A stretch of DNA of 64,000 nt, taken from assembly GCA_037139975.1 (NCBI GenBank), contig JBAXFJ010000001.1:48586-112585 (forward strand), in the 5' to 3' direction. The notes under the pieces are model-generated. The model saw only the letters and a program-made list of their open reading frames with translations, was not told the origin of the DNA and did not search any database. A program made the position numbers and the translations under genes. Numbering within the stretch: the first letter of the stretch is position 1; every line of letters starts with the position of its first letter. This DNA is from a bacterium (GTDB lineage Bacteria > Patescibacteriota > Minisyncoccia > Phycocordibacterales > SBAW01). Positions 3,544-44,618 of this stretch are shown here, in pieces.

Positions 3544-6500
3544 TCTCTTCTACAATCGTCAGTTCTGAAAGTCCTGTTGCCACCACGAGCGCGGCTTTGT
3601 GTTTGTGTGCAACCGTGGCTTCTTTTTCTGACACAACCAACTCATACACAGGTCTGTCTGAAATCACTAAGCCCTGGGTCTTGCGCCAGCCCTGGATGCG
3701 CCTCGTGAGGTCGCGCACAATTCCCTCTTCTTCAAGTTCAGGGGTGAGTTCTGTATCCAACCCGACTTCGCTGTTCAGGTTTTTGTCCTCTACAATTTCT
3801 TTGACGTTTATTTCTTCGGCAATGATTGCGCACAGCTCAGGCGAAAGCGTGAGTGTTTTAACTGAAAGTTTAGCGAGTGGTTGGCGGACCTTGATGCCTG
3901 CTTTCTCACGCTCTTGCAGCCCCAAAGAAGAGAGCTCGCGCACTTGGTTCATGTCTTTCAAAAGTTGCTCGTCTACCACCCCAGCCACAGGCCAATGTGC
4001 CAAGTGCACACTTTCTGCTTCGGTCTCATCCTCACTTTTTACCTTTTGGAACAAGTCCTCAGCAAAAAACGGCATTGCGGGCGCCATCACCAATGCGGTC
4101 GTGTAGAGCACGTGGCGCAACGTCGCAAGCGCTTGTTGTTTGTCGTCGCCATCAACTTTAAACCTATCGCGCGAGCGGCGTACATACCACGTCGAGAGGT
4201 CATCGATGAAGCTGGCCAGCGGCCGCATCGCCACGTCGAGCTCATATTTTTCAAACCCACTTGTTGTGTCACGTACCAATTCACCCAAACGTGAAAGGAT
4301 CCATCGATCTAATACATACAGGTCCGCCGAAACACGTCCTGCGAAAAAGTCCTCGGGCCTCCCTCGCCCGTCTTTAGACGAGCTTCGAGCCAGACTATTT
4401 TCTCGGACATCTTTCGGCTCCCCCATGCGCGAAGAAACTTCCAGCGAAGTGGGTACATACAACTCATAAAAACTTCGCACATTGTCGAGCCGCATCAAAA
4501 GTTTCTTGGCCACTTCTTCGACACTGCGCATCGAAAAGTTGAAGTCCTCGGCGTGCACTACCGACGAGCTCAAAAGTGTGTAGCGCAGGGCGTCAGCGCC
4601 ACATGAAGCGACCACGTCCATCGGGTCAGGATAATTCTTGAGGCGCTTGCTCATCTTTTGACCGTCTTGCGCCAGGACCATGCCATTCACGATGACATTT
4701 TTGTAGGGACTTTTGCCAAAGAGCGCAGTGCCCAAAACGATGAGCGAATAGAACCATCCGCGTGTCTGGTCGAGCCCTTCAGCGATGAAGTCGGCGGGAT
4801 AGCCTTTGGAAAACAGCCCGAGCATGCGCGTGGGGTGGAAGCCTTTTTTATTGAATGGATAGTGCCCGCGTGCAAACGGCATCGAACCCGACTCAAACCA
4901 ACAATCAAAGACGTCCGTGACACGCTTCCACTCACCATGTACCGCGTCGCCCAGCGGTACCTCGTCGATGTAGGGCCGGTGCAGGTCGAGCGCAAACGTG
5001 GCGCTGTGCGGATAGGCAATGAAGTCTATTTTTTTATGTTCAGCAAGAGTAAACAGATGCCCACGGTGTGTGCGCGACTCCATGTCTTTGTGGTCCGAAA
5101 TCGCGGCAATTTCGGTCAGGAGCCACGCAGGAACTTCGTGCGTCACAATGAGGATAGTCTTGCCACTATAGCGCTGCTCGATGTCAAACAAGAAGTCTCC
5201 CACCCGTGTGCGCACAGCATTGTAGTTTTCAGCCCCAACCAGGGCATGATTAAACTTGTCTGATAGCGTGGCAAAGAGCCCACGCCACTCTTCGATGCGT
5301 TTGCCTTCATGTTCTCCAAACTGAGTCTCGACGAGGCGCGTGTCGGTCATCACGACCGAGTTTTGCAAACCAAGCTCACGGCAAACAATCTGTGCGGTCT
5401 CTTGCGTGCGGACCAAAGGCGAGACAACAACCATGTCGATGCCCATCTTTTTGAGCGTCTGCGCCGAAGTGCGCACCTGCTCCTTCCCCACTTCGGTCAG
5501 ATTATTTTCTATTTCATTGGTTGAGTTGACGAACCCCTCAACATTGCTCTTGGCTTCACCGTGTCGCATCACCACATAGGTGTTGCCTGAGCGACGCACG
5601 AGCGAGAGCAGCTCTTTCACCGAGCCCACCACTTTCAATTCCTTGGTTTTGCTGTGACGCCACACGGGAATGGGCGCACCCCAGTAGCGGCTGCGTGAAA
5701 TAGCCCAGTCGGGCGCCGAGGCCAAGCCGTTTTGAAAACGCCCCACGCCCACATGGCCCGGCACCCAGGTCACCCTTTTGTTTTGGGCCAGGAGTTTTGG
5801 CTTGATGCTTTGCACATTTACAAACCACGAGTTCGCCGCCCAATTGAGCAGCGGCGTATCGCAGCGCCAACAGTGTGGGTAGGAGTGCGTAACTTTTTCA
5901 CTATGGAAAAGCAACCCGCGCTCTTTTAAATTTTCGATAATTTTTGCATCAGTCTCCATGTGCCGCCCTTTTGGCTTCACGGGCAGGTGGGCAAAGTCAG
6001 TGACGGTTGCCACAAACTTGCCTTCGTCGGTCACGTGGTGAATGAGTGGGATCTTTTCTTTTTGTGCCAATTCCAAGTCCTCGGCACCATAGGCAGGCGC
6101 CAAGTGCACGATGCCGGTGCCGTCTTCGAGCGTCACATAGGGCGCGGCATACACACGCCACGCGTGCGTTTTGTGTTTGTGCAAGTCGCCCACAAAATAA
6201 TCAAATGGCGGCGTGTATCGCTTGCCCACCAAGTCCTTTCCCAAAATCTCGCCATGGACTTTCACGTCGGCACCCAAAACCTTTTCGGCAAGTGCTTTTG
6301 CCACCACCACAAACCCATCGCCCACTTTTGCTTTCACATATACCGCTTCGGCATTAACCGCAGCAGCGGTATTGCCGGGGAGCGTCCAGGGCGTCGTCGT
6401 CCAAATGAGCAGTGAGGTTTCGGGCTCGTCCACCAGCGGCAGTTTGACGGTGACCGCAAAATCCTCGATGTCCGCATACCCCTGAGCCACCTCAAAGTTG

Positions 6501-25266: not shown

Positions 25267-25285
25267 GTGCCCGGGAGAGGACTCG
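25267..25285 (-). repeat. 19-nt fragment identical to the 3' end of tRNA-Leu (putative distal att repeat)
   Basis: gtgcccgggagaggactcg matches 29680..29698 within tRNA-Leu, in the same orientation and 4.4 kb away. Confidence 0.6.
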
Positions 25286-25351
25286 GTCACAGATACTTTC
25301 TCGGCTCAGAAATTTCTGCGACCCCGCCTCAGTCACCTTCGCTCCTTCCGG
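25285..25351 (-). promoter_or_regulatory. Conserved intergenic module, copy a (upstream of cax)
   Basis: GGTCACA(A/G)AT - palindrome - TTCGCGACCCC..CTC... - TCGCTCC..CCGG. Copies b and c are at 31172 and 31391. Confidence 0.4.
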
Positions 25352-25366
25352 CCTTCGAGTCCTACG

Positions 25367-25414
25367 ACCAAAAAGTTAAAACCGGCACAAGGCCGGTTCT
25401 CAACTTTTCGGTGC
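25367..25414 (-). terminator. Copy of the tRNA-Leu trailer hairpin (AACCGGC-acaag-GCCGGTT plus T-run)
   Basis: 48-nt identity with 29635..29682. Reads as a terminator on the minus strand. Confidence 0.5.
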
Positions 25415-25770
25415 TGTAATTATACACTTTGCGCGAACCTTTTTCGAGCGGAAACTGGACGAATGAACCGAAGCCCCACGCACTGGCGAGTACGCCAGCA
25501 ACCCCGAAAGAAAAAATACTCCTTGCATTTCTGATTTGGCGGGGGTGAAATTTTTCTTGAAAAAGGAAAGGGTGTTTTTCTTTCGGGGTTCTGCCCTCCA
25601 AGTATTCGGGCAGTGCGTGGGGCTTCAATACGGACTCGGCAAAGCGAAAATCTGTTTTTCTGGAGAAAAGGATTTTTCGCTTTGCCTCGACTGATTTTCC
25701 GCCCGCAGGAGGGGTCTGGGGAGGAATGCGGGCGGGAATCCCAATTCGCTTTTTCGGAAAATTTTCCGCC
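25415..25770 (+). repeat. Repeat X (356 bp), copy 1, with nested perfect palindromes
   Basis: Perfect inverted copy at 27261..27616. Internally GAAGCCCCACGCACTG...CAGTGCGTGGGGCTTC (16 bp) encloses AACCCCGAAAGAAAAA...TTTTTCTTTCGGGGTT (16 bp). Track ORF 25362..25628 lies inside it. Confidence 0.7.
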
Positions 25771-25772
25771 CT

Positions 25773-26459
25773 CTAAGAATTAGCAGAAATTTTTCTTGGA
25801 AAGAGTTTACAAAAAATAAGTCCGAAAATTAAACCAGATAAATGTCCCCAATTATCAATTTCAAATGAATCTAACGCCTTTTTGTTTTCAGCAAAGCTGA
25901 AAATCAAAAATAAAAAGATGATCATACCAAAACCTAGTAGATATTCTTTGAATGTTAATTTTGGTATGTCTAACAAGTAAGCAGCGGCTAAACCAAATAA
26001 TCCAGCGGAAGCTCCTGCTGATACCATTGGGTTAGAAAAGAAAAATATTGAAATTGATGAGAGTACTCCACTAAAAATAAAGATTGACAAAAAACGACCA
26101 GCTTTTACGTTTCTTTCATAAAGCGACAATATTCCCAAGAATGATAAATTTGTCCATAGATGTAATAAGTTAAGGTGTATAAAATTGTGTGTGATTGTTT
26201 GTACGAACCACCAAGGAGTAAACGTGTATAAATTATTTACACCTAAAATTACAAACCAATTTTCATTCAACTCATTAAAAGTTCCACTAGAAAGGACGAA
26301 GAAAGTAACGATCAAAAGTATACCCAACCAGAATGTTGCTTGAATTTTTTTGAAACTTTCCCAATAACCTGGTATTTTGGCTTGTAAATCGTTAGGACTG
26401 GGTCGTAAGAAAAAAAGAGTAATGGTCCATACAAGTATGGTTAATAAAAACAGCGTCAT
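25773..26459 (-). CDS. Rhomboid-family intramembrane serine protease
   Basis: Six-TM protein with a GASAGLFGL (GxSx) motif and NWGHLSGLIFG (catalytic His). Confidence 0.65.
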   Translation of the reverse strand: MTLFLLTILVWTITLFFLRPSPNDLQAKIPGYWESFKKIQATFWLGILLIVTFFVLSSGTFNELNENWFVILGVNNLYTFTPWWFVQTITHNFIHLNLLHLWTNLSFLGILSLYERNVKAGRFLSIFIFSGVLSSISIFFFSNPMVSAGASAGLFGLAAAYLLDIPKLTFKEYLLGFGMIIFLFLIFSFAENKKALDSFEIDNWGHLSGLIFGLIFCKLFPRKISANS

Positions 26460-26462
26460 ATT

Positions 26463-26906
26463 TTAAGAAGACTTAGAAAGTAGAAATTCTCTTGTCTTGT
26501 CATCTAATTTTGCGAGCTTCTCAACCCCCTTTAGTTGTGCGTTAAGAATAAGTTTTCTACCGTTAGAAAAAACTAATTGCAAAGGAGCTTGCAGAAATCC
26601 CTTGCCAAGTTTCATTTTTGAAATTTCAGCATAAGAGAAAAAATTGTATGTTTCTGGCTTACCCCATAAACTTAGTTTATGAAGATGCATGCCGTTATTT
26701 GTAACTCCAACATAATAGATTCGCATACCAAAAAACATAAACGGACCAATCAAAAAGAACCACCAAATTGGAGGTGTGTAAGACGCTTGGAAAAAACCAA
26801 TTAGTTCTTCTCCTTGATTAAGACGTGGCAAGATAATATCGCTTTTAATTTGTTCTTTAGTCATATTTTTTATTAGGTAATAATTAAATTTATTTCTTTT
26901 CGACAA
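26463..26906 (-). CDS. Hypothetical membrane-associated protein (bacterial PH-domain-like)
   Basis: 147 aa with a central hydrophobic hairpin (PPIWWFFLIGPFMFFGMRIYYVG). Confidence 0.45.
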   Translation of the reverse strand: MSKRNKFNYYLIKNMTKEQIKSDIILPRLNQGEELIGFFQASYTPPIWWFFLIGPFMFFGMRIYYVGVTNNGMHLHKLSLWGKPETYNFFSYAEISKMKLGKGFLQAPLQLVFSNGRKLILNAQLKGVEKLAKLDDKTREFLLSKSS

Positions 26907-26948
26907 CGCTATTCATAAGTCTACCCCCCCCCGACACTTTTGCAATAC

Positions 26949-27155
26949 TCATTTTATCAAATCGTCAACGCTAATCTCAAGGGCTTTCGCGACCTTTTTT
27001 AGTGTTTCTAGTGTCGGGTTTTTATTTTCTCCAGACTCCATTTTGATAAGCGTATTATTGGCGACATCGGCCAGTCTTGCCAACTTCTCTTGCGAAAGCC
27101 CTTTGGCTTCCCTTAATCGCTTTATATTGTTTGATAAATTTTGGCTTGTTGACAT
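26949..27155 (-). CDS. XRE-family helix-turn-helix transcriptional regulator
   Basis: IKRLREAKGLSQEKLARLADVANNTLIKMESGENKNPTLETLKKVAKAL is a classic Cro/C1-type HTH. 68 aa. Confidence 0.75.
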   Translation of the reverse strand: MSTSQNLSNNIKRLREAKGLSQEKLARLADVANNTLIKMESGENKNPTLETLKKVAKALEISVDDLIK

Positions 27156-27260
27156 ATTACCATTAAGAGATTAACATTATAGTAGAGGTATCCATTTACC
27201 TGTTACTACTATGATGTTACACCAAAATTTTAAACAAATCAATATGTGGAATCTTTTTGT

Positions 27261-27616
27261 GGCGGAAAATTTTCCGAAAAAGCGAATTGGGATTCCCGCC
27301 CGCATTCCTCCCCAGACCCCTCCTGCGGGCGGAAAATCAGTCGAGGCAAAGCGAAAAATCCTTTTCTCCAGAAAAACAGATTTTCGCTTTGCCGAGTCCG
27401 TATTGAAGCCCCACGCACTGCCCGAATACTTGGAGGGCAGAACCCCGAAAGAAAAACACCCTTTCCTTTTTCAAGAAAAATTTCACCCCCGCCAAATCAG
27501 AAATGCAAGGAGTATTTTTTCTTTCGGGGTTGCTGGCGTACTCGCCAGTGCGTGGGGCTTCGGTTCATTCGTCCAGTTTCCGCTCGAAAAAGGTTCGCGC
27601 AAAGTGTATAATTACA
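27261..27616 (-). repeat. Repeat X, copy 2 (inverted relative to copy 1)
   Basis: Reverse complement of 25415..25770. Contains track ORF 27211..27708. Confidence 0.7.
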
Positions 27617-27664
27617 GCACCGAAAAGTTGAGAACCGGCCTTGTGCCGGTTTTAACTTTTTGGT
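27617..27664 (+). terminator. Trailer hairpin copy 2 (inverted orientation), shared junction between repeats X and Y
   Basis: Reverse complement of the 48-nt core at 25367..25414 and 29635..29682. Confidence 0.5.
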
Positions 27665-27910
27665 GTCTGTATTGTACCAAACTCGCACCTATTTCCAAAA
27701 CAAAGTGAGGTAATGACTTCGCACGCTCCGCGTGCGTGGTGACTTGAAACTAAATCGTACGCTCGGATTCTGCGCGCCTCGTCCGCTCCCTGCGGTCGCG
27801 GGAGCAAAAACCAAAAATTTTCCTTCCTTAATTTTAGATTTTCGGCGGGGGGTGTGGGGGGAGCCGACAAAAAATGGAAAGGAAATTTTTGGTTTTGCTT
27901 CGCCGTTTCA
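27665..27910 (+). repeat. Repeat Y (about 246 bp), copy 1, highly structured
   Basis: Inverted copy at 29385..29634. Internal ~21-bp stem AAAACCAAAAATTTTCCTTCC / GGAAAGGAAATTTTTGGTTTT plus hairpins CGCACGC-TCCG-CGTGCG and GCTCCC-N9-GGGAGC. Confidence 0.7.
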
Positions 27911-28140
27911 GTCTCCGAAAAGAGCATCATTATTTTATCATATTTTGATTGCTCTTTTCTCCGCCCTCACGGCGAGACGAGGCGCTTCCTCTCAGCGTTT
28001 GGTGGTAGTTTGAAACTCTGTGTCTTCGGTGACTGGTGGTGATAAACCAAGAAAGCGGAACCTCGCCATACAAAATTCTTTAAGGAATGGCGAGGCACAA
28101 ATCTATATGTGCTTGACCCACCCTCCCGTTCGCGCACAAC

Positions 28141-28183
28141 AATCCCCGCCGTTTTTAGGAAAAATTATAAAACGGCGGGGATT
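28141..28183. terminator. 15-bp perfect-stem hairpin downstream of the pilin gene
   Basis: AATCCCCGCCGTTTT-taggaaaaattat-AAAACGGCGGGGATT. Confidence 0.5.
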
Positions 28184-28209
28184 GCTCCCTTGAAAACCGA
28201 AACTACTAA

Positions 28210-28716
28210 CTACCAAGAGCTACATGCAGGTTCTCCACTGCATATCATCCATGCCCATGTCGGACGAACGGGGTCATAAAACGCCTGTCCTGAACTCGGA
28301 AAACTTTCAGGTCCATTTGCATGCGAGAGTAATTTATAATTTGTTCCATTAGACTGGTAAAGAAATCCAGACCAGCCACTCGTGTCACCACTCGGATCAG
28401 CAGGTAAAACCGAAATATATGTCGGGGTCAATCCGGGAATATAAGCATTTGCACCGCTTGTGGTTCGACTTCCGCCGTTGGCGCTCAATCCATACCAAAC
28501 GCCACTTGTTGATGGATACGAATTATTACTGTCCAGATAAAGTTCAAGTGCTGTTTGTAGTTGTTTCAGCTCCGATTTACGATAAGCATCTCTAGCTTTC
28601 CCTCTTGCACTGTTTAAGCTCGCGAGAACAACACTTGAAAGTATTCCGATGATAGCAATGACGACAAGAAGTTCGATGAGTGTAAAACCTTTTGAATTGT
28701 TTTTTTGTAAAAACAT
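28210..28716 (-). CDS. Type IV pilin (prepilin with N-terminal methylation motif)
   Basis: KGFTLIELLVVIAIIGILSSVVLASL is the class III signal peptide / pilin N-terminus. Confidence 0.8.
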   Translation of the reverse strand: MFLQKNNSKGFTLIELLVVIAIIGILSSVVLASLNSARGKARDAYRKSELKQLQTALELYLDSNNSYPSTSGVWYGLSANGGSRTTSGANAYIPGLTPTYISVLPADPSGDTSGWSGFLYQSNGTNYKLLSHANGPESFPSSGQAFYDPVRPTWAWMICSGEPACSSW

Positions 28717-28726
28717 AATTGAAATA

Positions 28727-29068
28727 TTAAAATCGTTCCTGCAAGCGCGGCGGCGCGTTTTCAGGATAGATTATTTTTTGACCCGGAGGTGCTTCGAGTT
28801 TCGCTTTGCTTCCTCCGCCACTAAACAGAAAAATAATCACGACAATAATCGCCACCGCTACAAATCCAATCAAAACATAATTTGCCTGCTTTTCGTCTTT
28901 GATATATCCGCCGGAATACTTGATGACCCACTGAACTATTTTGGGCGTTGGCGTTTGAAAAGATCGAGGTCGTTGAAACTCCTCGCCCTCAAACACTATT
29001 TTCCCCGGTTCGTTGTTTTGGTCCATAACTTTATAAAAAGTGTTGTTGCAGATTTTAGTTTTCCACAA
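28727..29068 (-). CDS. Hypothetical single-TM membrane protein
   Basis: 113 aa with a C-terminal TM helix (VLIGFVAVAIIVVIIFLF). Confidence 0.45.
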   Translation of the reverse strand: MWKTKICNNTFYKVMDQNNEPGKIVFEGEEFQRPRSFQTPTPKIVQWVIKYSGGYIKDEKQANYVLIGFVAVAIIVVIIFLFSGGGSKAKLEAPPGQKIIYPENAPPRLQERF

Positions 29069-29116
29069 CTATTTTAATTGTATCACTTACGCCCCCCCCG
29101 CAAACGAAAAAGGGGG

Positions 29117-29323
29117 CTACTTCAACAACTTATCCACTGAAACGCCGAGCGCTTGCGCCAATCGTTCCAATTGCTGGATAGTGATGTTTTTCTTGCCATT
29201 CTCGATTGCACTCATATAACTTCTGTCCATATCTAACTTACGACAAATATCGCCTTGCGACATTTTACGGCGAAGCCGTATCTGTTTGATATTCTGTCCG
29301 AGTTTTTTGGAAATTTGAGCCAT
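29117..29323 (-). CDS. XRE-family helix-turn-helix transcriptional regulator
   Basis: IKQIRLRRKMSQGDICRKLDMDRSYMSAIENGKKNITIQQLERLAQAL. 68 aa; paralogous in architecture to 26949..27155. Confidence 0.75.
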   Translation of the reverse strand: MAQISKKLGQNIKQIRLRRKMSQGDICRKLDMDRSYMSAIENGKKNITIQQLERLAQALGVSVDKLLK

Positions 29324-29384
29324 ATTTTAGATATCCACAGTTTAGCAATTATTGCTTTTTTATTCCATATGGTATTATAGTTCC

Positions 29385-29634
29385 ATATGACAACGGCGAA
29401 GCAAAACCAAAAATTTCCTTTCCATTTTTTGTCGGCTCCCCCCACACCCCCCGCCGAAAATCTAAAATTAAGGAAGGAAAATTTTTGGTTTTTGCTCCCG
29501 CGACCGCAGGGAGCGGACGAGGCGCGCAGAATCCGAGCGTACGATTTAGTTTCAAGTCACCACGCACGCGGAGCGTGCGAAGTCATTACCTCACTTTGTT
29601 TTGGAAATAGGTGCGAGTTTGGTACAATACAGAC
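29385..29634 (-). repeat. Repeat Y, copy 2 (inverted)
   Basis: Reverse complement of 27665..27910. Confidence 0.7.
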
Positions 29635-29677
29635 ACCAAAAAGTTAAAACCGGCACAAGGCCGGTTCTCAACTTTTC
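29635..29677 (-). terminator. Intrinsic terminator directly 3' of tRNA-Leu (original copy of the trailer hairpin)
   Basis: On the minus strand: GCACC-gaaaagttgag-AACCGGC-cttgt-GCCGGTT-TTAACTTTTT. Confidence 0.55.
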
Positions 29678-29763
29678 GGTGCCCGGGAGAGGACTCGAAC
29701 CTCCACGCCCGTGAGGGCTTATCCACCTCAAGGATAAATGTCTACCAATTTCAACACCCGGGC
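29678..29763 (-). tRNA. tRNA-Leu (anticodon GAG), long variable arm
   Basis: Manual fold: acceptor GCCCGGG/CCCGGGC, anticodon stem TATCC/GGATA with loop TTGAGGT, variable stem CCC-tcac-GGG, T-loop TTCGAGT, discriminator A. Confidence 0.85.
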
Positions 29764-31152: not shown

Positions 31153-31171
31153 AGAGGTGTTGGAGGGACTC

Positions 31172-31250
31172 GGTCACAAATAAATTTTCTGCAGAAAATT
31201 TTTCGCGACCCCGGCTCGCGGTCTCGCCTGCTGGCTCGACATCGCTCCGG
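31172..31250 (-). promoter_or_regulatory. Conserved intergenic module, copy b (between tRNA-Val and the rluA-like gene)
   Basis: GGTCACAAAT-AAATTTTCTGCAGAAAATTT-TTCGCGACCCCGGCTCGCGGT...CATCGCTCCGG. Confidence 0.4.
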
Positions 31251-31358: not shown

Positions 31359-31390
31359 ATTATTGTTTGTTTTGTGCCTTTTGCACACTT

Positions 31391-31479
31391 GGTCACAAAT
31401 ACATTTCTGACGAAATGTTTCGCGACCCCACCTCGCGGTTTTTGCCTTTCGCTACGCTCAAACAAAAACATCGCTCCGG
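31391..31479 (-). promoter_or_regulatory. Conserved intergenic module, copy c (between tRNA-Arg and tRNA-Val)
   Basis: GGTCACAAAT-ACATTTCTGACGAAATGT-TTCGCGACCCCACCTCGCGGT...CATCGCTCCGG. Confidence 0.4.
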
Positions 31480-32542: not shown

Positions 32543-32596
32543 ATTTGTTTTGGTTTTAAAGGCGACTCCTCAGCTTTGGGAGGTGTTGCCTTGATT

Positions 32597-33183: not shown

Positions 33184-33648
33184 ATGGCAGATGGGACTAT
33201 TTCCTGGCAGGTAGCAACACACACGCACTATGAACGCTCGCCCGACTGGTATTGGACACTCGGCGTTGTGGCAGTGGTGGGTGCGGGCATCTCCATCTAT
33301 TTCAGCAACATGCTTTTTGCGCTCATCTTGTTGATTGGCGCAAGCTCGGTCGGCATGCTCGTGGCGCGTGGACCGCGCGAACACCTCGTCTCGCTTGGTG
33401 CGCGCGGCGTTTCGATGGACGGAACACTCTACCCTTACGAATCGGTACAGTCGTTTTGGGTCGAACAGCACGTTGAGACCCCTCGACTTTTTTTGACCAC
33501 ATCAAACTTTCTACACCCACACATCATCATCCCGCTTGATTCCGTCGCACACGGTGAAGAAGTGCGTGGCCACCTCGCACAATATGCCGAAGAAACAGAG
33601 CGCCTCCCCCGCTTTAGCGAAGAGGTCGCAGAAATCTTCGGATTGTAG
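33184..33648 (+). CDS. Hypothetical 2-TM membrane protein
   Basis: Track ORF 32827..33648 trimmed to the Met at 33184 (MADGTISWQ...); the upstream part would overlap tRNA-Ser and ruvX. Confidence 0.45.
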   Translation: MADGTISWQVATHTHYERSPDWYWTLGVVAVVGAGISIYFSNMLFALILLIGASSVGMLVARGPREHLVSLGARGVSMDGTLYPYESVQSFWVEQHVETPRLFLTTSNFLHPHIIIPLDSVAHGEEVRGHLAQYAEETERLPRFSEEVAEIFGL

Positions 33649-33662
33649 TAGTGTGTTGATAC

Positions 33663-33737
33663 GCTCCCGTCGTTCAACGGATAGGACGCATCCTTGCGGA
33701 GGATGCAATGTAGGTTCGATTCCTGCCGGGAGCACCA
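33663..33737 (+). tRNA. tRNA-Arg (anticodon GCG), CCA encoded
   Basis: Manual fold: acceptor GCTCCCG/CGGGAGC, anticodon stem CATCC/GGATG with loop TTGCGGA, T-arm GTAGG-TTCGATT-CCTGC, 3' end ACCA. Confidence 0.8.
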
Positions 33738-33831
33738 AGTAGGAAATTGCAAGGTGGAGCTCGCCGCCGCGTCGGACGCGGCGGCTCGCGCGTACTGTGT
33801 TTTGGGCTCGAATTCAAATTGGCGATTTCGC
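33732..33831 (+). repeat. IR1-left: 100-bp perfect terminal inverted repeat, starting inside the tRNA-Arg 3' end
   Basis: gcaccaagtaggaaattgcaagg...ggcgatttcgc. Exact reverse complement at 35257..35356. Contains the GC palindrome GCCGCCGCG-tcgga-CGCGGCGGC. Confidence 0.8.
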
Positions 33832-35201
33832 AGAGAATGGTTCGCGCCGATGTTTTTCAGAAATGCTGTCATTCCGCTCAAGTCATTGTGGGAAAGCAGA
33901 TTCGCGGCTTGATTCAAGGACTTTACAAACTCACGAGCTGGTTCGAGCCAAGACACGCCCCTTTGTTCGATGTCGGTGATTTTTTCCTCAACCCTCACTT
34001 TTTGAGATATGAGGATATTCTTTTTGGCGGCGTACTCTGCTGTGGATAGCGCGTCGGCGAGGTAGAGGTTGAGCAACTTTTCTAGTTGGTTGTCCAGTGT
34101 GGTGAGTTCGGTTTTCAAGTTCTCCGCTTCTAGCTTTGCCTCCTCTTTTGCTTTCGTTTCCTCGCTCTCCAACGCCGCCAAAACTTTCTGCGTGTCTTGG
34201 CTCGATAAAGAAACTTTTTGCAGAAACGATTTGATTTGGTTTTCAAGCACATCTTCGCGCAAATATTTCTCGGTACATGCGCCTCGTTTTTTGGTACAGC
34301 GATAGTAGGTGTAGATTCCGCCGTTTCCTTTTGCATATTGCGCTGTAATGCTTGCTCCGCACGAGGCGCACTTCATTAGTCCGAGAAATGCGAATTTGTG
34401 CTTTTTCGTTTCGTGTGTGTTGCCGCGCTTGCTCATCATTTCTTGGCATAAATCAAAAAGTTTCTTTGCAACCAACGGCTCGTGAGTTCCCTCAAAGATT
34501 TCCGCCTTGTATCTCATCAGGCCGATGTAGAACGGATTTTGTAGAATATGCTGAACATTGCTTAATGACACGGGGTTGTTCGCGTTCGTTTTGAGGTCTT
34601 GTTCGGCGCACCAATTTGCGAGAGATTTTAGCGTGTAAGCTCCAGTGGAATACAGTTCGAATAGTTTTTGTACTTTTGGAGCGTTGATGCTGTCCACGTC
34701 AATTCCCCGTGTCTTGGGGTTGTTTATGTATCCCACCGGAGCCCAACCGGGCCAGACGCCGTTCCGTATCTTTTGCCGCAAACCTCGTTTTACGTTTTCT
34801 CGCAAATTGTCGGAGAAATATTTGCTCTGTCCAAAAGCAATATTCAGCATGAACAAACCTTGTGGCGTTGGTTCAAACCAGTGGGTCGGAAATTTGAGGG
34901 AACGAATCAAGCCGCGATCCACCATGTGGATTATCTTGCCCCCGTCTACTGAATTACGCGCGAGACGGTCGGGGTGCCAAGATATGATGCCGTCTGCTTT
35001 CCCACGCTCAATGAATGACAGCATTTCTGCGAACCCTGTTCGCCCGGGCTCTTTTGCGGTTTTCGCCTCGTAGAACGAGGCGACAATATCAAATTTTTCT
35101 TTGGCGGAATACGAAAAAAGCTCAGCAAGCTGAGCTTGGATGCTTAGGACTTGGCGGTCATCTTCTTCGGTGCTTTTCCTTGCGTAGATTACATATTTCA
35201 T
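33832..35201 (-). CDS. Large serine recombinase (resolvase/integrase family); 3' end uncertain
   Basis: MKYVIYARKSTEEDDRQVLSIQAQ... is the catalytic-Ser N-terminus (S10). A recombinase domain, Cys4 zinc ribbon (CASCGAS...CTKKRGAC) and coiled coil follow. The ORF stays open through IR1-left and the tRNA antisense down to 33435. Confidence 0.8.
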
Positions 35202-35256
35202 ATCTCGTTGTGATTACTTGCTAAAGGAATGCCAAAAAGTTTTCTTTTTCCCGAAA

Positions 35257-35356
35257 GCGAAATCGCCAATTTGAATTCGAGCCCAAAACACAGTACGCGC
35301 GAGCCGCCGCGTCCGACGCGGCGGCGAGCTCCACCTTGCAATTTCCTACTTGGTGC
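35257..35356 (-). repeat. IR1-right (inverted copy of 33732..33831)
   Basis: Perfect 100-bp match. Includes cctacttggtgc, the antisense of the tRNA-Arg 3' end. Confidence 0.8.
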
Positions 35357-35449
35357 AGGATACTTGAATTAGTGCGAACCAGCTTCCGCGCCGCCGAAGG
35401 CGGCGCAAACCCCCCGCAGAAAATGCAGGCGGCGAAGCCGCACCGCTCG
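35353..35449 (+). repeat. IR2-left: about 97-bp perfect inverted repeat abutting IR1-right
   Basis: gtgcaggatacttgaattagtgcgaacc...gccgcaccgct. Reverse complement at 36418..36513. Contains GCGCCGCC-gaag-GCGGCGC. Confidence 0.8.
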
Positions 35450-35587
35450 AAAACCGCAAAAGAGCCCGGTGAAAAACATCGGCGCAAACCATTCTCTTTC
35501 GGTGCGGGCGAAGCCCGCTCTGAATTTGTTTCGGGAAAAAGAAAACTTTTTGTCATACAATTTATTTATTAACTCGTTGCTAATTTT

Positions 35588-36340
35588 ATGAATCGAGGAT
35601 TTGCGAACATTGCTTTGATAATCGCTCTAGTCGTTGCCATTATTGGCGGCGCAAGTTATTGGGCTTGGTCGCAAAAGTCGAGCGCGCCTGAAACTTCCGC
35701 AACGACTAAACTGCCAAGTCCACAGCCGAAACCGAACGTAACGAATCAAGTTTCAAATCAGCCAATAAAAACGCAGTACGATGTTGAAACTGATGGTGGA
35801 TTTGGGAATGTTTGCGGAACGTCAACCCAGAGACTTGTGCGAGCGACGTTCGATGGTAAAAAATGGGCCACCACAACACTCTCGGAGTTAGGAACACCAG
35901 GGAAAGACGCCCCACTTTACTGGTTCTTTTCAGCTCCCACAAAAAGCAATCTAATTTTCTTAGGTTCTGCGCATTGTTTTACTGAAGGCGGAGGAGGTGG
36001 TATTTGGTCTTACAGTCTAAAAACCGGTGCGCTCGATGCACTGAGCTTTCCCTACGGCAACCGAGCTCCCACCGATGTATCGCCAGATGGTGCAAGAGTC
36101 GTACAAGTACAAGCGGACATACGGTCTGAAAATCAGACTCTGAGTCTTCTTGACCTCGTCAAAAATACTTCCACTGTGTTGGTGACACTTCCGCAGGGAA
36201 AACATTTTGAGTTTGGTTGCGAACCACTTTCTCCTTGTACGACATCCTCATTACACTGGGTAGATAATTCAACGGTCGAGTACAGTGTCTATGAATCTTC
36301 GCAGACTCCAATAGAGACACATCGGATCAACCTTCCGTAG
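35588..36340 (+). CDS. Hypothetical secreted protein (N-terminal signal/TM anchor)
   Basis: 250 aa. Sole gene between IR2-left and IR2-right. Confidence 0.5.
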   Translation: MNRGFANIALIIALVVAIIGGASYWAWSQKSSAPETSATTKLPSPQPKPNVTNQVSNQPIKTQYDVETDGGFGNVCGTSTQRLVRATFDGKKWATTTLSELGTPGKDAPLYWFFSAPTKSNLIFLGSAHCFTEGGGGGIWSYSLKTGALDALSFPYGNRAPTDVSPDGARVVQVQADIRSENQTLSLLDLVKNTSTVLVTLPQGKHFEFGCEPLSPCTTSSLHWVDNSTVEYSVYESSQTPIETHRINLP

Positions 36341-36417
36341 AACTTCTAATTTCAAAGAACGATGGTGCGTGCTCCGCACGCGCGTACCTAGTCCGCCAAA
36401 GAAAAATTTGATATTGT

Positions 36418-36513
36418 CAGCGGTGCGGCTTCGCCGCCTGCATTTTCTGCGGGGGGTTTGCGCCGCCTTCGGCGGCGCGGAAGCTGGTTCGCACTAATTC
36501 AAGTATCCTGCAC
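36418..36513 (-). repeat. IR2-right
   Basis: Reverse complement of 35353..35449. Confidence 0.8.
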
Positions 36514-40985: not shown

Positions 40986-41669
40986 TTAAAGCGTGAGCGC
41001 GAAACGCTCAAGCAAGAGCGCGAGGTCACCTGCGCCGCGGTGAGAGTCATGATAGAGCGAGACGAGCGTTCGAGATAATTTGTGTAACTCGGCTTTTGCA
41101 TATTTCGAGCTCGGGCCGCTGGTGAGCATTTGTCGCACCTTCCACACCAAGATGCCCGCAGTGGCCTCGGGCTTCTCCCCCGCTGCAGATGACTTCACAA
41201 TGCCAAGCCAGAGCCGCTTTCTGTCACGACTCGCGAGCGCCGCAGTGACACTAAACGGATCAAAGCCTTTGTCTTTTTTGACTGGCGCTTTGTGCACTTC
41301 TATTTTTGCACCAGTCTTTTCAAGCACAGTGGTTGGGCCTTTCAACAACTTTTCTTCTTCAAAGAGAAAGAGGTGTGCTGACACTTGCAATTCTTTTGCC
41401 AATTTCAAAAACTCCTCCCCCCGTTCGCCCGCGAGTGCGCCCGAAAAGCGAAATGCGAGCACCCCACCAAAAAGCGTCTCGGTCCGCGCAAGCGAAAGCA
41501 TTTCTTCTGCGTTCAGATTCTGCCAATCCAAGTCTTCGGGCGTAGCCGAAGCAAAAACTTCTTGAGGAAATGGTCTGGCCCGAAGCTCGCCCGAAAGCGA
41601 GCGAGGGAGGCCCGAGGACCTTTCTGAAAGAAGTTTTTGCGGAGGATTTCCAACAACAACATGTATCAT
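40986..41669 (-). CDS. holA: DNA polymerase III delta-subunit-like protein (short)
   Basis: The C-terminal helical domain resembles HolA. ATGA overlap with the polA stop. The start was chosen as MIHVVVG. Confidence 0.35.
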   Translation of the reverse strand: MIHVVVGNPPQKLLSERSSGLPRSLSGELRARPFPQEVFASATPEDLDWQNLNAEEMLSLARTETLFGGVLAFRFSGALAGERGEEFLKLAKELQVSAHLFLFEEEKLLKGPTTVLEKTGAKIEVHKAPVKKDKGFDPFSVTAALASRDRKRLWLGIVKSSAAGEKPEATAGILVWKVRQMLTSGPSSKYAKAELHKLSRTLVSLYHDSHRGAGDLALLLERFALTL

Positions 41670-44544: not shown

Positions 44545-44618
44545 AAAAGTAGCCTAGCACAACTCACTCAAGGCGACACCTTCCAGAGCTAAGGAGTCGC
44601 CTTAAAACCAAAACATCA

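Follow-up and report, generated by a model that had tools for sequence, protein, structure and literature searches.

A 404-nt inverted arm of small gene cassettes in a patescibacterial contig, probably part of serine-recombinase elements at tRNA genes

The repeat analysed here, X, is one arm of a perfect inverted repeat around a small gene cassette, and we consider it likely that this non-coding arm belongs to a family of elements that are mobilised by a large serine recombinase (LSR) and insert at the 3' ends of tRNA genes. The genomes of CPR bacteria (Patescibacteria) are tiny, and descriptions of mobile elements in them are scarce. A single 25-nt sequence within X marks several hundred small, like-built cassettes, mostly in CPR and many of them beside an LSR at a tRNA. 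If our reading is right, such cassettes represent a major route of accessory-gene exchange among these organisms; a literature search of incomplete coverage returned no prior description of them. The window (the whole 64,000-nt stretch of DNA analysed) holds two chains of 100% identical inverted repeats, each beginning at a tRNA 3' end. The first of these, island 1, comprises the following features.

25267..25285, minus strand: 19-nt exact copy of the tRNA-Leu(gag) 3' end, a direct repeat with 29679-29697
25286..25366, unstranded: relic unit "module D", 77% similar to 31166-31217 and related to 31387-31439
25367..25770, unstranded: arm X
25771..27260, minus strand: cassette 1, about 1.5 kb between the X arms, GC 31-37%
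25773-26459, minus strand: rhomboid protease of cassette 1
26463-26864, minus strand: 133-aa ORF of cassette 1
26949-27155, minus strand: XRE-type HTH gene, the lead gene of cassette 1
27261..27664, unstranded: arm X', perfect inverted copy of X (self-comparison), holding a spurious 165-aa ORF at 27211-27708
27617..27907, unstranded: arm Y, with core C copy 2, a tRNA-like terminus and then hairpins; 100% complementary to 29392-29682
27908..29391, minus strand: cassette 2, between the Y arms
28210-28716, minus strand: pilin-like protein of cassette 2, with N_methyl motif
28727-29026, minus strand: 99-aa ORF of cassette 2
29117-29323, minus strand: XRE-type HTH gene of cassette 2
29392..29682, unstranded: arm Y', perfect inverted copy of Y, ending in core C copy 3 with a 5-nt overlap of the tRNA 3' end
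29678..29763, minus strand: tRNA-Leu(gag), the integration target of island 1 (tRNA search)

Arm X spans 404 nt and is 100% complementary to 27261-27664. The sequence-only reading, made from the letters and an ORF list, had placed the repeat at 25415-25770 (356 nt); the repeat itself is real, and the true arm is larger. Arms X and Y share a 48-nt core, core C, present in three copies at 25367 (plus strand), 27617 (minus strand) and 29635 (plus strand), and the X-armed and Y-armed units are chained at the 3' end of tRNA-Leu. The direct repeat and the logic of the junctions identify 25267-25285 as the distal, attR-like boundary of the whole island, and the 19-nt partial tRNA left there is the mark of tRNA-targeted integration as seen in tycheposons. 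Read by eye, module D also ends in a tRNA-3'-end-like fragment (25340-25369, plus strand). Two of the cassette proteins have exact matches on the source contig only. Island 1 thus carries two cassettes and no recombinase of its own; one is encoded in island 2, at a second tRNA.

33663..33737, plus strand: tRNA-Arg(gcg), the integration target of island 2
33732..35356, minus strand: LSR unit, bounded by a 100-nt perfect inverted repeat (33732-33831 with 35257-35356)
33850-35201, minus strand: LSR, whose ORF continues to 33435, across the core and the tRNA
35353..36513, plus strand: second unit, bounded by a 95-nt perfect inverted repeat (35353-35447 with 36419-36513)
35588-36340, plus strand: 250-aa ORF of the second unit

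The LSR carries the domains PF00239 Resolvase, PF07508 Recombinase and PF13408 Zn_ribbon_recom. The two units of island 2 share a 4-nt core, GTGC/GCAC, and an on-paper reconstruction of this island gives tRNA-Arg followed by a terminator. The islands of the window contain HTH, LSR and cargo genes only, the cargo including the rhomboid protease and the pilin-like protein.

Perfect inverted repeats of this length might be suspected of being products of SPAdes assembly, as the sequence comes from a short-read metagenome assembly (contig NODE_6 of ERZ4222710) and many related contigs end inside module M2 of X (described below). We regard this explanation as highly improbable. The same chained architecture turns up in dozens of assemblies made independently and, to judge from their contig names, with different assemblers, every arm-to-cassette junction is unique and so necessarily read-supported, and the diverged arms of older copies (83-95% identity) are not expected of an artefact. 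X itself is 91-96% identical at the DNA level in three further loci (L009, L010 and L011), where it forms inverted pairs around different cassettes. In a set of 94 inverted-repeat pairs with both ends within a contig, arm identity was at least 99% in 45 and below 95% in 30.

That X is structured and does not encode protein had been proposed from the sequence alone. The 88-aa ORF at 25362..25628 and the 165-aa ORF at 27211..27708 do exist as mechanical ORFs, and at least 803 database "proteins" match the 165-aa translation of X' at 65-96% identity, with source names that include Zambryski-, Terry- and Uhrbacteria. This might suggest a genuine conserved small protein, a possibility to which we attach next to no weight. 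Neither ORF has a Pfam match, and the database matches, most of them on short contigs, are 98-257 aa long and cover the query only in part. In homologues the distance between two conserved M2 anchors is 66, 67, 68, 70 or 73 nt. The spacings thus differ by 1, 2, 4 and 7 nt, none of these differences being divisible by three, and their remainders modulo 3 are divided among 44, 38 and 1 homologues; a constant reading frame is not maintained. Moreover, 8 of 83 homologues have an in-frame stop inside a 125-nt segment, the best-conserved "peptide" is merely the translation of a hairpin (H4), and substitutions are compensatory across stems. The doubt that the earlier reading cast on these ORFs was therefore well founded, and at least 803 "hypothetical proteins" in the databases are translations of a non-coding repeat.

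The structure of X is strong. The whole arm folds at -170 kcal/mol on the plus strand (z = -7.45) and at -166.6 kcal/mol on the minus strand (z = -9.31), and none of 100 shuffled sequences folded as well; X is thus far more stable than shuffled sequence, as its nested stems had led the sequence-only reading to expect. Those stems are present as described: GAAGCCCCACGCACTG (25471-25486) pairs perfectly with CAGTGCGTGGGGCTTC (25612-25627), AACCCCGAAAGAAAAA (25500-25515) nested within it pairs with TTTTTCTTTCGGGGTT (25575-25590), and the internal palindrome TTTTTCTTGAAAAA lies at about 25550-25563. The fold of arm Y is less striking (z of -3.3 and -4.5); the long-range stem of about 21 bp reported for Y is there, in an imperfect form of 28 nt with 82% complementarity (27807-27834 with 27869-27896). 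Rfam 15 at gathering thresholds matches only tRNAs in the window, and at E-values up to 5 adds only sub-threshold microRNA and snoRNA models. With no Rfam family for X, and with X found only as the paired arms of a cassette, the proposal of a free-standing RNA gene or MITE falls away, while the non-coding nature of X, and selection on structure in part of it, are borne out. X is instead modular, built from the following parts.

25367..25414, unstranded: core C copy 1, a 40-nt hairpin between inverted cores ..ACC and GGTG.., scored as intrinsic-terminator-like
25415..25470, unstranded: outer terminus of X, resembling a tRNA T-arm plus acceptor (a tRNA 3' half), minus-strand reading GGTTCGCGCAAAGTGTATAATTACAGCACC
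25471..25627, unstranded: module M1, the nested hairpins of the earlier reading, with a 16-bp outer stem, a 16-bp inner stem and two 6-bp side hairpins
25632..25738, plus strand: module M2, with GGACTCGG, hairpin H3 (25638-25686) and hairpin H4 (25697-25738)
25739..25770, unstranded: inner tail of X; the 100% inverted repeat stops at 25770

Of the functions that the sequence-only reading had offered for X, a recombination site or a terminator comes closest to the evidence, since the outer 48 nt hold a crossover core and a terminator-like hairpin. Across loci the termini of arms of this type, here called a-type, resemble tRNA 3' halves. A promoter scan also placed an outward-facing promoter-like site in the terminus of X (25447-25419, TCGAAA-17-TATAAT). 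For the outer ~80 nt of X we would suggest four roles: terminator, crossover core, outward promoter-like site and a half-site similar to a tRNA 3' half. In the window, X and Y show a clear outward extended -10 motif, as do 6 of 44 distinct arm termini; in the commonest terminus class it is not clear, and we treat it as a local observation and not as a general feature of the termini. At the inner arm boundary, recurrent CGCC(G/A)CC motifs and two alternative 17-nt hairpins were noted. No consistent rule was obtained for this boundary as a second crossover core, and the idea was set aside.

M1 is the part of X that most resembles a transposable repeat. It is a discrete 157-nt block whose perfect inverted termini measure 16 bp in the window and 15 bp in most relatives, and its distribution is patchy: only about 14 related copies were found, in various lineages and at 88-100% identity, and most arms that bear M2 lack it. 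Another hairpin block, module D, sits inserted in the H3 loop of one related locus (L226). M1 might therefore be a MITE-like palindromic insertion into a pre-existing arm, to which the remainder of X would be unrelated. We find this doubtful. The terminal inverted repeats expected of a MITE are present in M1, but there is no target-site duplication around it (the flanks read ..ATGAACC and AATACGG..), and the sequence that flanks the whole arm continues the inverted repeat, without direct repetition. M1 was never seen outside an a-type arm among the loci fetched; within the 64 kb only the two arm copies of M1 and X occur, and these are accounted for by arm duplication. It also covers just 157 of the 404 nt. 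X thus shares with MITEs and REP-like repeats that it is short, non-coding and hairpin-forming, with terminal inverted repeats and patchy distribution in its M1 part, and differs from them in having no target-site duplication, no dispersed copies found and a position always within a cassette arm. M1 itself would be an optional inserted hairpin module. With so little variation it offers almost no informative pairs for covariation, and its mismatches comprise 10 G-U and 17 A-C cells (8 and 6 pairs, respectively).

M2 is far more widespread. The H4 loop has a conserved stretch of 21 nt, AGGAGGGGTCTGGGGAGGAAT, and an exact 25-mer of M2, GCAGGAGGGGTCTGGGGAGGAATGC, occurs at 240 or more public loci, with at least 120 each in the genome and metagenome collections. 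Among the matches listed, most record titles name CPR lineages, and the loci often present inverted pairs around HTH-led cassettes, adjoining an LSR that abuts a tRNA. Conservation of the H4 loop does not depend on selection by the 25-mer, for 91 of 120 translated matches chosen otherwise carry PARIPPQTPPAGG exactly. The 25-mer was absent from viral contigs, which gives no link to catalogued viruses; six viral matches to the 16-mer of the M1 outer stem were taken as chance. In H3, five of the eight pairs have changed on both sides, with 99% of cells paired, and the covariation score was reached by none of 500 shuffles. The variants of its 5' strand (GGCAAAGCG, GGCAGGGCG, GGCGGGGC and GGTTTTGCG) are each accompanied by a matching 3' strand. 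Secondary structure is thus under selection in at least this part of X, and base pairing rather than a reading frame is conserved, as had been suspected from the palindromes; symmetric changes in a palindrome can equally reflect co-evolution with a dimeric DNA-binding protein. At two loci (L043 and L082) the H4 stem has been wholly replaced and its loop kept. A covariance model of M2 (R1) detects two copies in the window and no more, each scoring 123 bits; no diverged copy emerged in Y or island 2, where scores stay at or below 9 bits. By eye, a hairpin with a G-rich loop in arm Y (27855-27880) looks like an analogue.

The placement of M2 invites a regulatory explanation, in which M2 or all of X would be a cis-regulatory RNA (a leader, riboswitch-like element, attenuator or small RNA) read in the HTH sense and controlling the cassette operon. 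At dozens of loci M2 is fixed in orientation, with H4 toward the cassette and 110-250 nt ahead of the start of the XRE-type HTH gene. H3 covaries, many copies show H4 as a GC-rich stem with a short U run behind it, and the H4 loop holds two Shine-Dalgarno-like GGAGG motifs. A promoter-like site listed for arm Y by the promoter scan (27698-27671, minus strand) faces outward and would transcribe X' in the HTH sense. Nevertheless, we judge this explanation unlikely. An inverted copy always stands at the far end of the cassette, where a leader is impossible, and H4 occurs alone inside LSR arms beside tRNA-Gln with no HTH gene nearby (L043, L051 and L082). Between M2 and the HTH gene lie promoter-like sites, TTGATT-17-TAACAT and a TATAAT about 24 nt before the ATG, read by eye and not listed by the promoter scan; with these, M2 need not be in the HTH mRNA. 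M2 mismatches number 22 G-U against 9 A-C cells but 8 against 7 pairs, a count that favours neither strand, and no Rfam family matches. We would take M2 for the conserved cis-acting part of X. Most likely it functions in folded, single-stranded form, be it RNA or DNA, and a conserved factor of the host or the element would recognise its G-rich loops, each with TCTGGGG.

What these cassettes are part of is best seen at loci where an LSR homologue lies beside an M2 cassette, of which there are 35. In 27 of them the LSR gene ends at the 3' end of a convergent tRNA gene and in three it abuts an a-type arm, and the HTH genes upstream of the LSR are divergent from it in 20 of 20 cases. The junctions at locus L009 (a slash marks the junction) read tRNA..GCGCACC/AATAAGGAAC for the first, ..GATACACC/AATAAGGAAC for the second, which is internal and inverted, and ..GATACAC/AGGCAAGAG for the third. 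The same pattern recurs with a core of CCGCC or CCACC at more than 15 loci, and recombining the junction ends on paper yields a plausible attB and attP with a short core in common (CCGCC, CCACC or GCACC). An inverted, intact attP with arms of 95-404 nt is found inside the element in the window and at dozens of loci. From these arrangements a canonical element can be proposed. It would start at the tRNA 3' end with arm b2, inside which the LSR gene (convergent with the tRNA) has its 3' end, followed by the LSR gene; in its middle, arm b1 would abut arm a2 at a 3-5 nt core; and it would end with the XRE-type HTH gene (divergent from the LSR), cargo genes, arm a1 and the chromosome. Here b2 would be an inverted copy of b1 and a1 of a2, with X as an a-type arm, and the three junctions would be half-sites of attL (tRNA/b), a complete inverted attP (a/b) and attR (a/chromosome).

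Read in this manner, the junctions point to a small circle as the simplest free form; it would carry two inverted attP regions and would have integrated through one of them. In island 1, the 40-nt terminator hairpin stands where the LSR unit would be, and this island could be served in trans by the LSR of island 2, which has the GCAC(C) core in common with it. Two observations count against such mobilisation: no terminal direct repeats indicative of an excised circle occur among the 120 metagenome loci listed, and island 1 has no recombinase of its own. As to the former, the junction sequence of the circle equals that of the internal junction, and because of this a sequence search cannot find the circle. 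To our knowledge, LSRs are not known to require or retain a second, inverted attP. Some arrays also misfit a simple two-arc circle and need serial integrations, namely those of L020 and L230, with three to four chained units, and L202, where the LSR is flanked by two cassettes. At the related locus L011/L012 the cargo includes sugar-kinase and nucleoside-hydrolase genes.

The same arrangement could be read as an invertible-DNA switch of the shufflon or inverton kind, with the arms as recombination sites between which the recombinase flips each cassette: every unit lies between inverted repeats, the cores at its two sides are inverted, and a serine recombinase is encoded alongside. This we consider very unlikely. 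Orientation is fixed across genomes, as the 27 tRNA-convergent and three a-arm LSR genes and the uniformly divergent HTH genes attest; nearly a third of the arm pairs (30 of 94) fall below the 95% mark, unexpected for sites in active use; and arms of 100-400 nt far exceed the inversion sites known to us.

Integration through an LSR at a tRNA, which we favour, places the present elements near the serine integrase modules (phiC31, Bxb1, TP901-1). They share the Resolvase, Recombinase and zinc-ribbon domains, site-specific insertion, and junctions readable as attL/attR hybrids of an attP and attB with a short common core. Textbook serine integrase att sites are about 40-50 bp and without long repeats. 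Instead of a single attP lacking long end repeats, the present elements keep a complete inverted attP inside, with flanks of 100-400 nt on each side, and the inverted copy places each half of the element between perfect inverted repeats. They differ further in size (2.8-8 kb), in having no phage or conjugation genes, in targeting tRNA 3' ends and in an LSR reading frame that crosses the core. Neither the internal inverted attP nor the ultraconserved two-hairpin motif is found in textbook serine-integrase systems.

The tycheposons of Prochlorococcus likewise carry cargo, integrate specifically at tRNAs and form arrays or islands with partial tRNA copies, with an LSR in a minority of cases (bioRxiv 10.1101/2020.12.28.424599). 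Tyrosine recombinases drive most of them, replication genes are frequent, and 10-20 kb PICIs serve as the size comparison; the part of that report available to us gives no long inverted arms as a defining feature and mentions no conserved hairpin motif (bioRxiv 10.1101/2020.12.28.424599). The present elements are set apart by their occurrence in CPR genomes, their much smaller size and an HTH gene as sole constant partner. The hallmark genes named there, a lineage-specific tyrosine recombinase and a replication module, are absent from the islands of the window.

Integrons also form arrays of promoter-poor accessory cassettes beside a recombinase, with imperfect palindromic boundaries in which pairing is conserved over sequence. 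They rely on the tyrosine recombinase IntI, with attI, and on one attC of 57-141 nt at the end of each cassette, in direct order, the attC bottom strand being a proven substrate. The present cassettes instead have two long identical inverted arms each and a serine recombinase as neighbour. The yeast 2-micron plasmid and other circles of its kind resemble the proposed circle in consisting of two unique segments and a long inverted repeat that contains the recombination site. The 2-micron plasmid is flipped freely by the tyrosine recombinase FLP, whereas orientation is fixed in the present elements, whose circle is inferred from sequence.

CPR bacteria are thought to depend on competence machinery, and we would entertain, as a rather doubtful extension, the idea of a single-stranded DNA stage in the life of the elements, one that might follow competence uptake, for instance. 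The inverted arms would then pair into a dumbbell molecule whose central rod offers a double-stranded attP to the recombinase, and M2 would expose G-rich loops that contain CTG and would serve as an initiation site or promoter on the single strand. Owing to the inversion of the arms, one M2 copy would be in the orientation that works whichever strand is present. Each passage would restore perfect identity between the arms, in keeping with its decay in old copies. Such a life cycle, if true, would be new for an element with a serine recombinase. The CTX-phi attP(+), G4-type primase sites and plasmid single-strand origins are orientation-specific hairpins of small mobile DNA, with conserved loops and variable stems. 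M2 resembles these folded sites, a likeness that we take as a lead only, and its loops repeat a CTG-containing motif.

Repeat X is a non-coding cassette arm within a family of elements found integrated at tRNA genes and linked to genes for large serine recombinases (LSRs), an explanation that, taken as a whole, we regard as probable. The sequence-only reading had proposed a candidate structured RNA or a MITE. Its view of X as non-coding and structured stands, and X is neither an RNA gene nor a MITE; no Rfam family matches it. The repeat exceeds the bounds first assigned to it: 25367-25770 and 27261-27664 (X') are 100% complementary, as are the two copies of Y (27617-27907 and 29392-29682). Common to the X and Y pairs is a 48-nt overlap, core C, which occurs three times in alternating orientation and contains a terminator-like hairpin; the outer end of X comprises this core and a tRNA-like half-site. 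The parts of X, together with the two ends of the chain that it helps to form (island 1), are as follows.

25367-25414: core C, part of X
25415-25470: arm terminus, part of X
25471-25627: M1, the nested-hairpin module, part of X
25632-25738: M2, a two-hairpin module (H3 and H4), part of X
25739-25770: tail, part of X
29678-29763, - strand: tRNA-Leu(gag), its 3' end being the start of the island 1 chain
25267-25285: 19-nt exact copy of the tRNA-Leu(gag) end, end of the island 1 chain

The nested, perfect 16-bp stems reported for X are real (25471-25486 with 25612-25627, enclosing 25500-25515 with 25575-25590), as is the small internal palindrome TTTTTCTTGAAAAA; the analogous long stem claimed for Y exists, though its pairing is imperfect. 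When folded as a single strand, the 404-nt repeat proved far more stable than dinucleotide shuffles in either sense (+ strand, -170 kcal/mol; - strand, -166.6 kcal/mol; 7.5 and 9.3 SD beyond the shuffles, respectively), with less extreme values for Y (z of -3.3 and -4.5).

That X is not a protein gene was likewise borne out. Translated X' retrieves at least 803 database "proteins" at 65-96% identity, and these matches reflect nucleotide conservation, since the spacing between two invariant anchors varies among homologues (66, 67, 68, 70 or 73 nt) without keeping frame, an in-frame stop interrupts a 125-nt segment in 8 of 83 homologues, substitutions are compensatory across stems, and the best-conserved "peptide," PARIPPQTPPAGG, is one hairpin translated. 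A Pfam search of both ORFs in X and X' gave no match. Public databases contain at least 803 clustered "hypothetical proteins" that match this translation and appear to be a translated non-coding repeat. Many related contigs break within M2.

At 91-96% DNA identity, window positions 25471-25770 also occur in three further genomes, where inverted pairs again enclose unrelated cassettes. The loop of the last hairpin supplies a 25-mer with at least 120 exact matches in a species-representative genome collection, those listed including Saccharibacteria, many Parcubacteria groups, Woesebacteria, Levyibacteriota, and Doudna-, Magasanik-, Jackson- and Uhrbacteria. It has at least 120 more in JGI metagenomes and none among viral contigs. 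By record label, a few of the matching bins listed lie outside the Patescibacteria (CPR): a 472-kb contig labelled Nitrospirae (L023, MHEE01000015.1) and short contigs labelled Bacteroidetes, Gammaproteobacteria, Bdellovibrionales and Synergistaceae. Such labels would indicate either mis-binning or real spread beyond CPR. By BLAST across the 25-mer loci, only window positions 25627-25760 (M2) are near-universal, and M1 (25471-25627), whose stems had been stressed initially, occurs in about 14 copies; the layout of X is therefore modular.

The two hairpins of M2 form a conserved motif that covaries and keeps a fixed orientation towards a helix-turn-helix (HTH) gene. Among 83 distinct copies, 98.5% of H3 cells are paired and 5 of 8 pairs have changed on both sides; the whole structure beats 500 of 500 shuffles and all slid controls in both covariation score and cells paired. 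Most copies share an invariant H4 stem, in part because they were selected with the 25-mer; the stem is nevertheless wholly replaced in L043 and L082 (GGGCGGGGCGGC with GCCGCCCCGCCC) and also in L053, L108 and L117, with the 21-nt loop retained in all five. Both M2 loops, and in many copies the tail, carry (T/A)CTGGGG. M1 is very uniform, with 94% of cells paired and both-side changes in three cells only. A palindrome that co-evolves with a dimeric DNA-binding protein can likewise acquire symmetric changes; the M2 loops, being asymmetric and invariant, favour a hairpin over such a dyad operator, and a conserved factor may recognise M2 in the form of a folded single strand. G-U and A-C mismatches are equally spread and favour neither strand as the folded one, nor RNA over DNA. 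That M2 or X instead acts as a cis-regulatory RNA is a live alternative: in the window, the promoter-like site of Y would yield a transcript that spans X' in the sense of M2. In natural variants the hairpins behave like separable blocks. H3 has been lost between CTCGGC direct repeats in L221 (4071-4149) and L145, two head-to-head M2 copies have one H4 in common and no intervening cassette (L232:4891-5078), a single H4 lies between two divergent HTH genes (L208:3642-3748), and a foreign hairpin module sits inside the H3 loop of L226.

Mapping of 240 loci for M2, tRNAs, LSR and HTH homologues and inverted repeats yielded one recurrent design, ordered outward as tRNA 3' end, LSR unit and M2-armed cassette, with Ser (18), Ala (3), Gln (3), Arg (1), Asp (1) and Leu (1) tRNAs as targets. 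The LSR gene is convergent with the tRNA and lies between inverted arms of 95-150 nt spaced 1401, 1459 or 1483 nt apart; it ends at a tRNA in 27 of 35 cases and at another cassette arm in 3. Directly abutting this unit is the cassette, flanked by an M2-bearing arm pair of typically ~200 nt, its first gene encoding an XRE-type HTH protein divergent from the LSR (20/20). The fixed orientation of LSR, tRNA and HTH argues against an inversion switch. Arm pairs are at least 99% identical in 45 of 94 cases and below 95% in 30, so identity is high at copying and then decays, rather than being maintained in place. At the inner arm ends of eight loci (L072, L103, L128, L142, L161, L172, L230 and L237), two different 17-nt hairpins, ATTTTGCAAAGCAAAAT and GCCAGTTGAAAACTGGC, occupy mirror positions just within the identical part of both arms, followed by GCGCC(A/G)CCAA, which is similar to the tRNA-end core.

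The junctions suggest a route of integration. On one strand, L009 reads tRNA..GCGCACC/AATAAGGAAC at the first junction, ..GATACACC/AATAAGGAAC at the second, which is internal and inverted, and ..GATACAC/AGGCAAGAG at the third (slashes marking the junctions); by sequence these correspond in form to attL, attP and attR, with a common core, CAC(C). More than 15 loci show the same pattern with cores CCGCC or CCACC, the last tRNA bases. Cassette-arm termini resemble a tRNA T-arm and acceptor (GTTTCGAACTTTGTCCAACAAACACCGCC in the common class; GGTTCGCGC...ACAGCACC in X), so that each junction has one tRNA-like and one A-rich half. Cassettes, with both ends tRNA-like, alternate with units whose ends are both A-rich: LSR units, a 217-nt segment in L011 and, in island 1, the 40-nt C hairpin. 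The integrated element thus comprises attL, LSR, an inverted intact attP with long arms, HTH cassette and attR. We infer that the LSR recombines the junction of abutting cassette and LSR-unit arms with tRNA 3' ends, that the arms are duplicated attP flanks of a circular form, and that the simplest precursor would be a circle with two inverted attP regions, integrating via one; the longer arrays of L020, L202, L208 and L230 would then need serial integrations. No circular form was seen when terminal direct repeats were sought in the 120 metagenome loci listed.

In the window, each arm pair of island 1 encloses ~1.49 kb of lower GC. Both cassettes carry their genes on the - strand, beginning with a 68-aa XRE-type HTH protein, followed by a 133-aa ORF and a rhomboid protease in cassette 1 and by a 99-aa ORF and a pilin-like protein in cassette 2. 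Outward promoter-like sites within the termini of X and Y would drive transcription across the core. Island 2 (33732-36513), 4 kb off at tRNA-Arg(gcg), has the same design of chained perfect inverted repeats: an LSR between 100-nt repeats abuts a 250-aa ORF between 95-nt repeats, both units having the 4-nt core GCAC. Deleting island 2 on paper places a terminator directly after tRNA-Arg. Its LSR (33850-35201) may service island 1 in trans, given the same core, GCAC(C), and similar termini.

This LSR frame (33435-35201, - strand) has no stop before the att core and continues across the arm and on into the tRNA, for a length of 588 aa against the 450-aa domain-bearing part analysed; it is likewise open past the core in L083, L087, L091, L093, L094, L116, L022, L030, L054 and L080. 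The C-terminal tail would therefore differ between integrated and excised states.

These elements resemble serine-integrase elements in recombinase and junction logic, integrons in their cassette arrays with structured boundaries and, from the portion of the description available, tycheposons in tRNA-gene targeting and cargo arrays. As described in that portion, tycheposons lack both the M2 motif and an inverted, internal attP whose long arms are identical, and neither feature is known for serine integrases or integrons. A literature search of incomplete coverage found no description of such elements; the element design to which X leads is widespread and apparently undescribed, and the motif within it is ultraconserved.

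Several smaller features accompany the islands. An extra hairpin module, GTCACAGATAC...CGCGACCCCGCCTC, is found next to the tRNA-Leu remnant (25286-25366), downstream of tRNA-Val and tRNA-Arg(tct) (31166-31217 and 31387-31439) and within the H3 loop of M2 in L226 (4350-4440); it probably represents the relic of an arm or one more hairpin block capable of insertion. At 25340-25369 (+ strand), ..CCTTCGAGTCCTACGACCA looks like a tRNA 3' end facing tRNA-Leu across island 1, comparable to L011, where convergent tRNA-Val and tRNA-Leu bracket one cassette. A G-rich loop also tops a hairpin of arm Y, CGGC-GGGGGGTGTGGGGGGA-GCCG (27855-27880 and 29419-29444), which looks analogous to the M2 H4 loop GGGGTCTGGGG and is unscored by the covariance model. 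Two further inverted similarities in the window, 32549-32594 with 44568-44613 (46 nt at 85%) and 4330-4435 with 41533-41638 (106 nt at 72%), appear unrelated to the islands.
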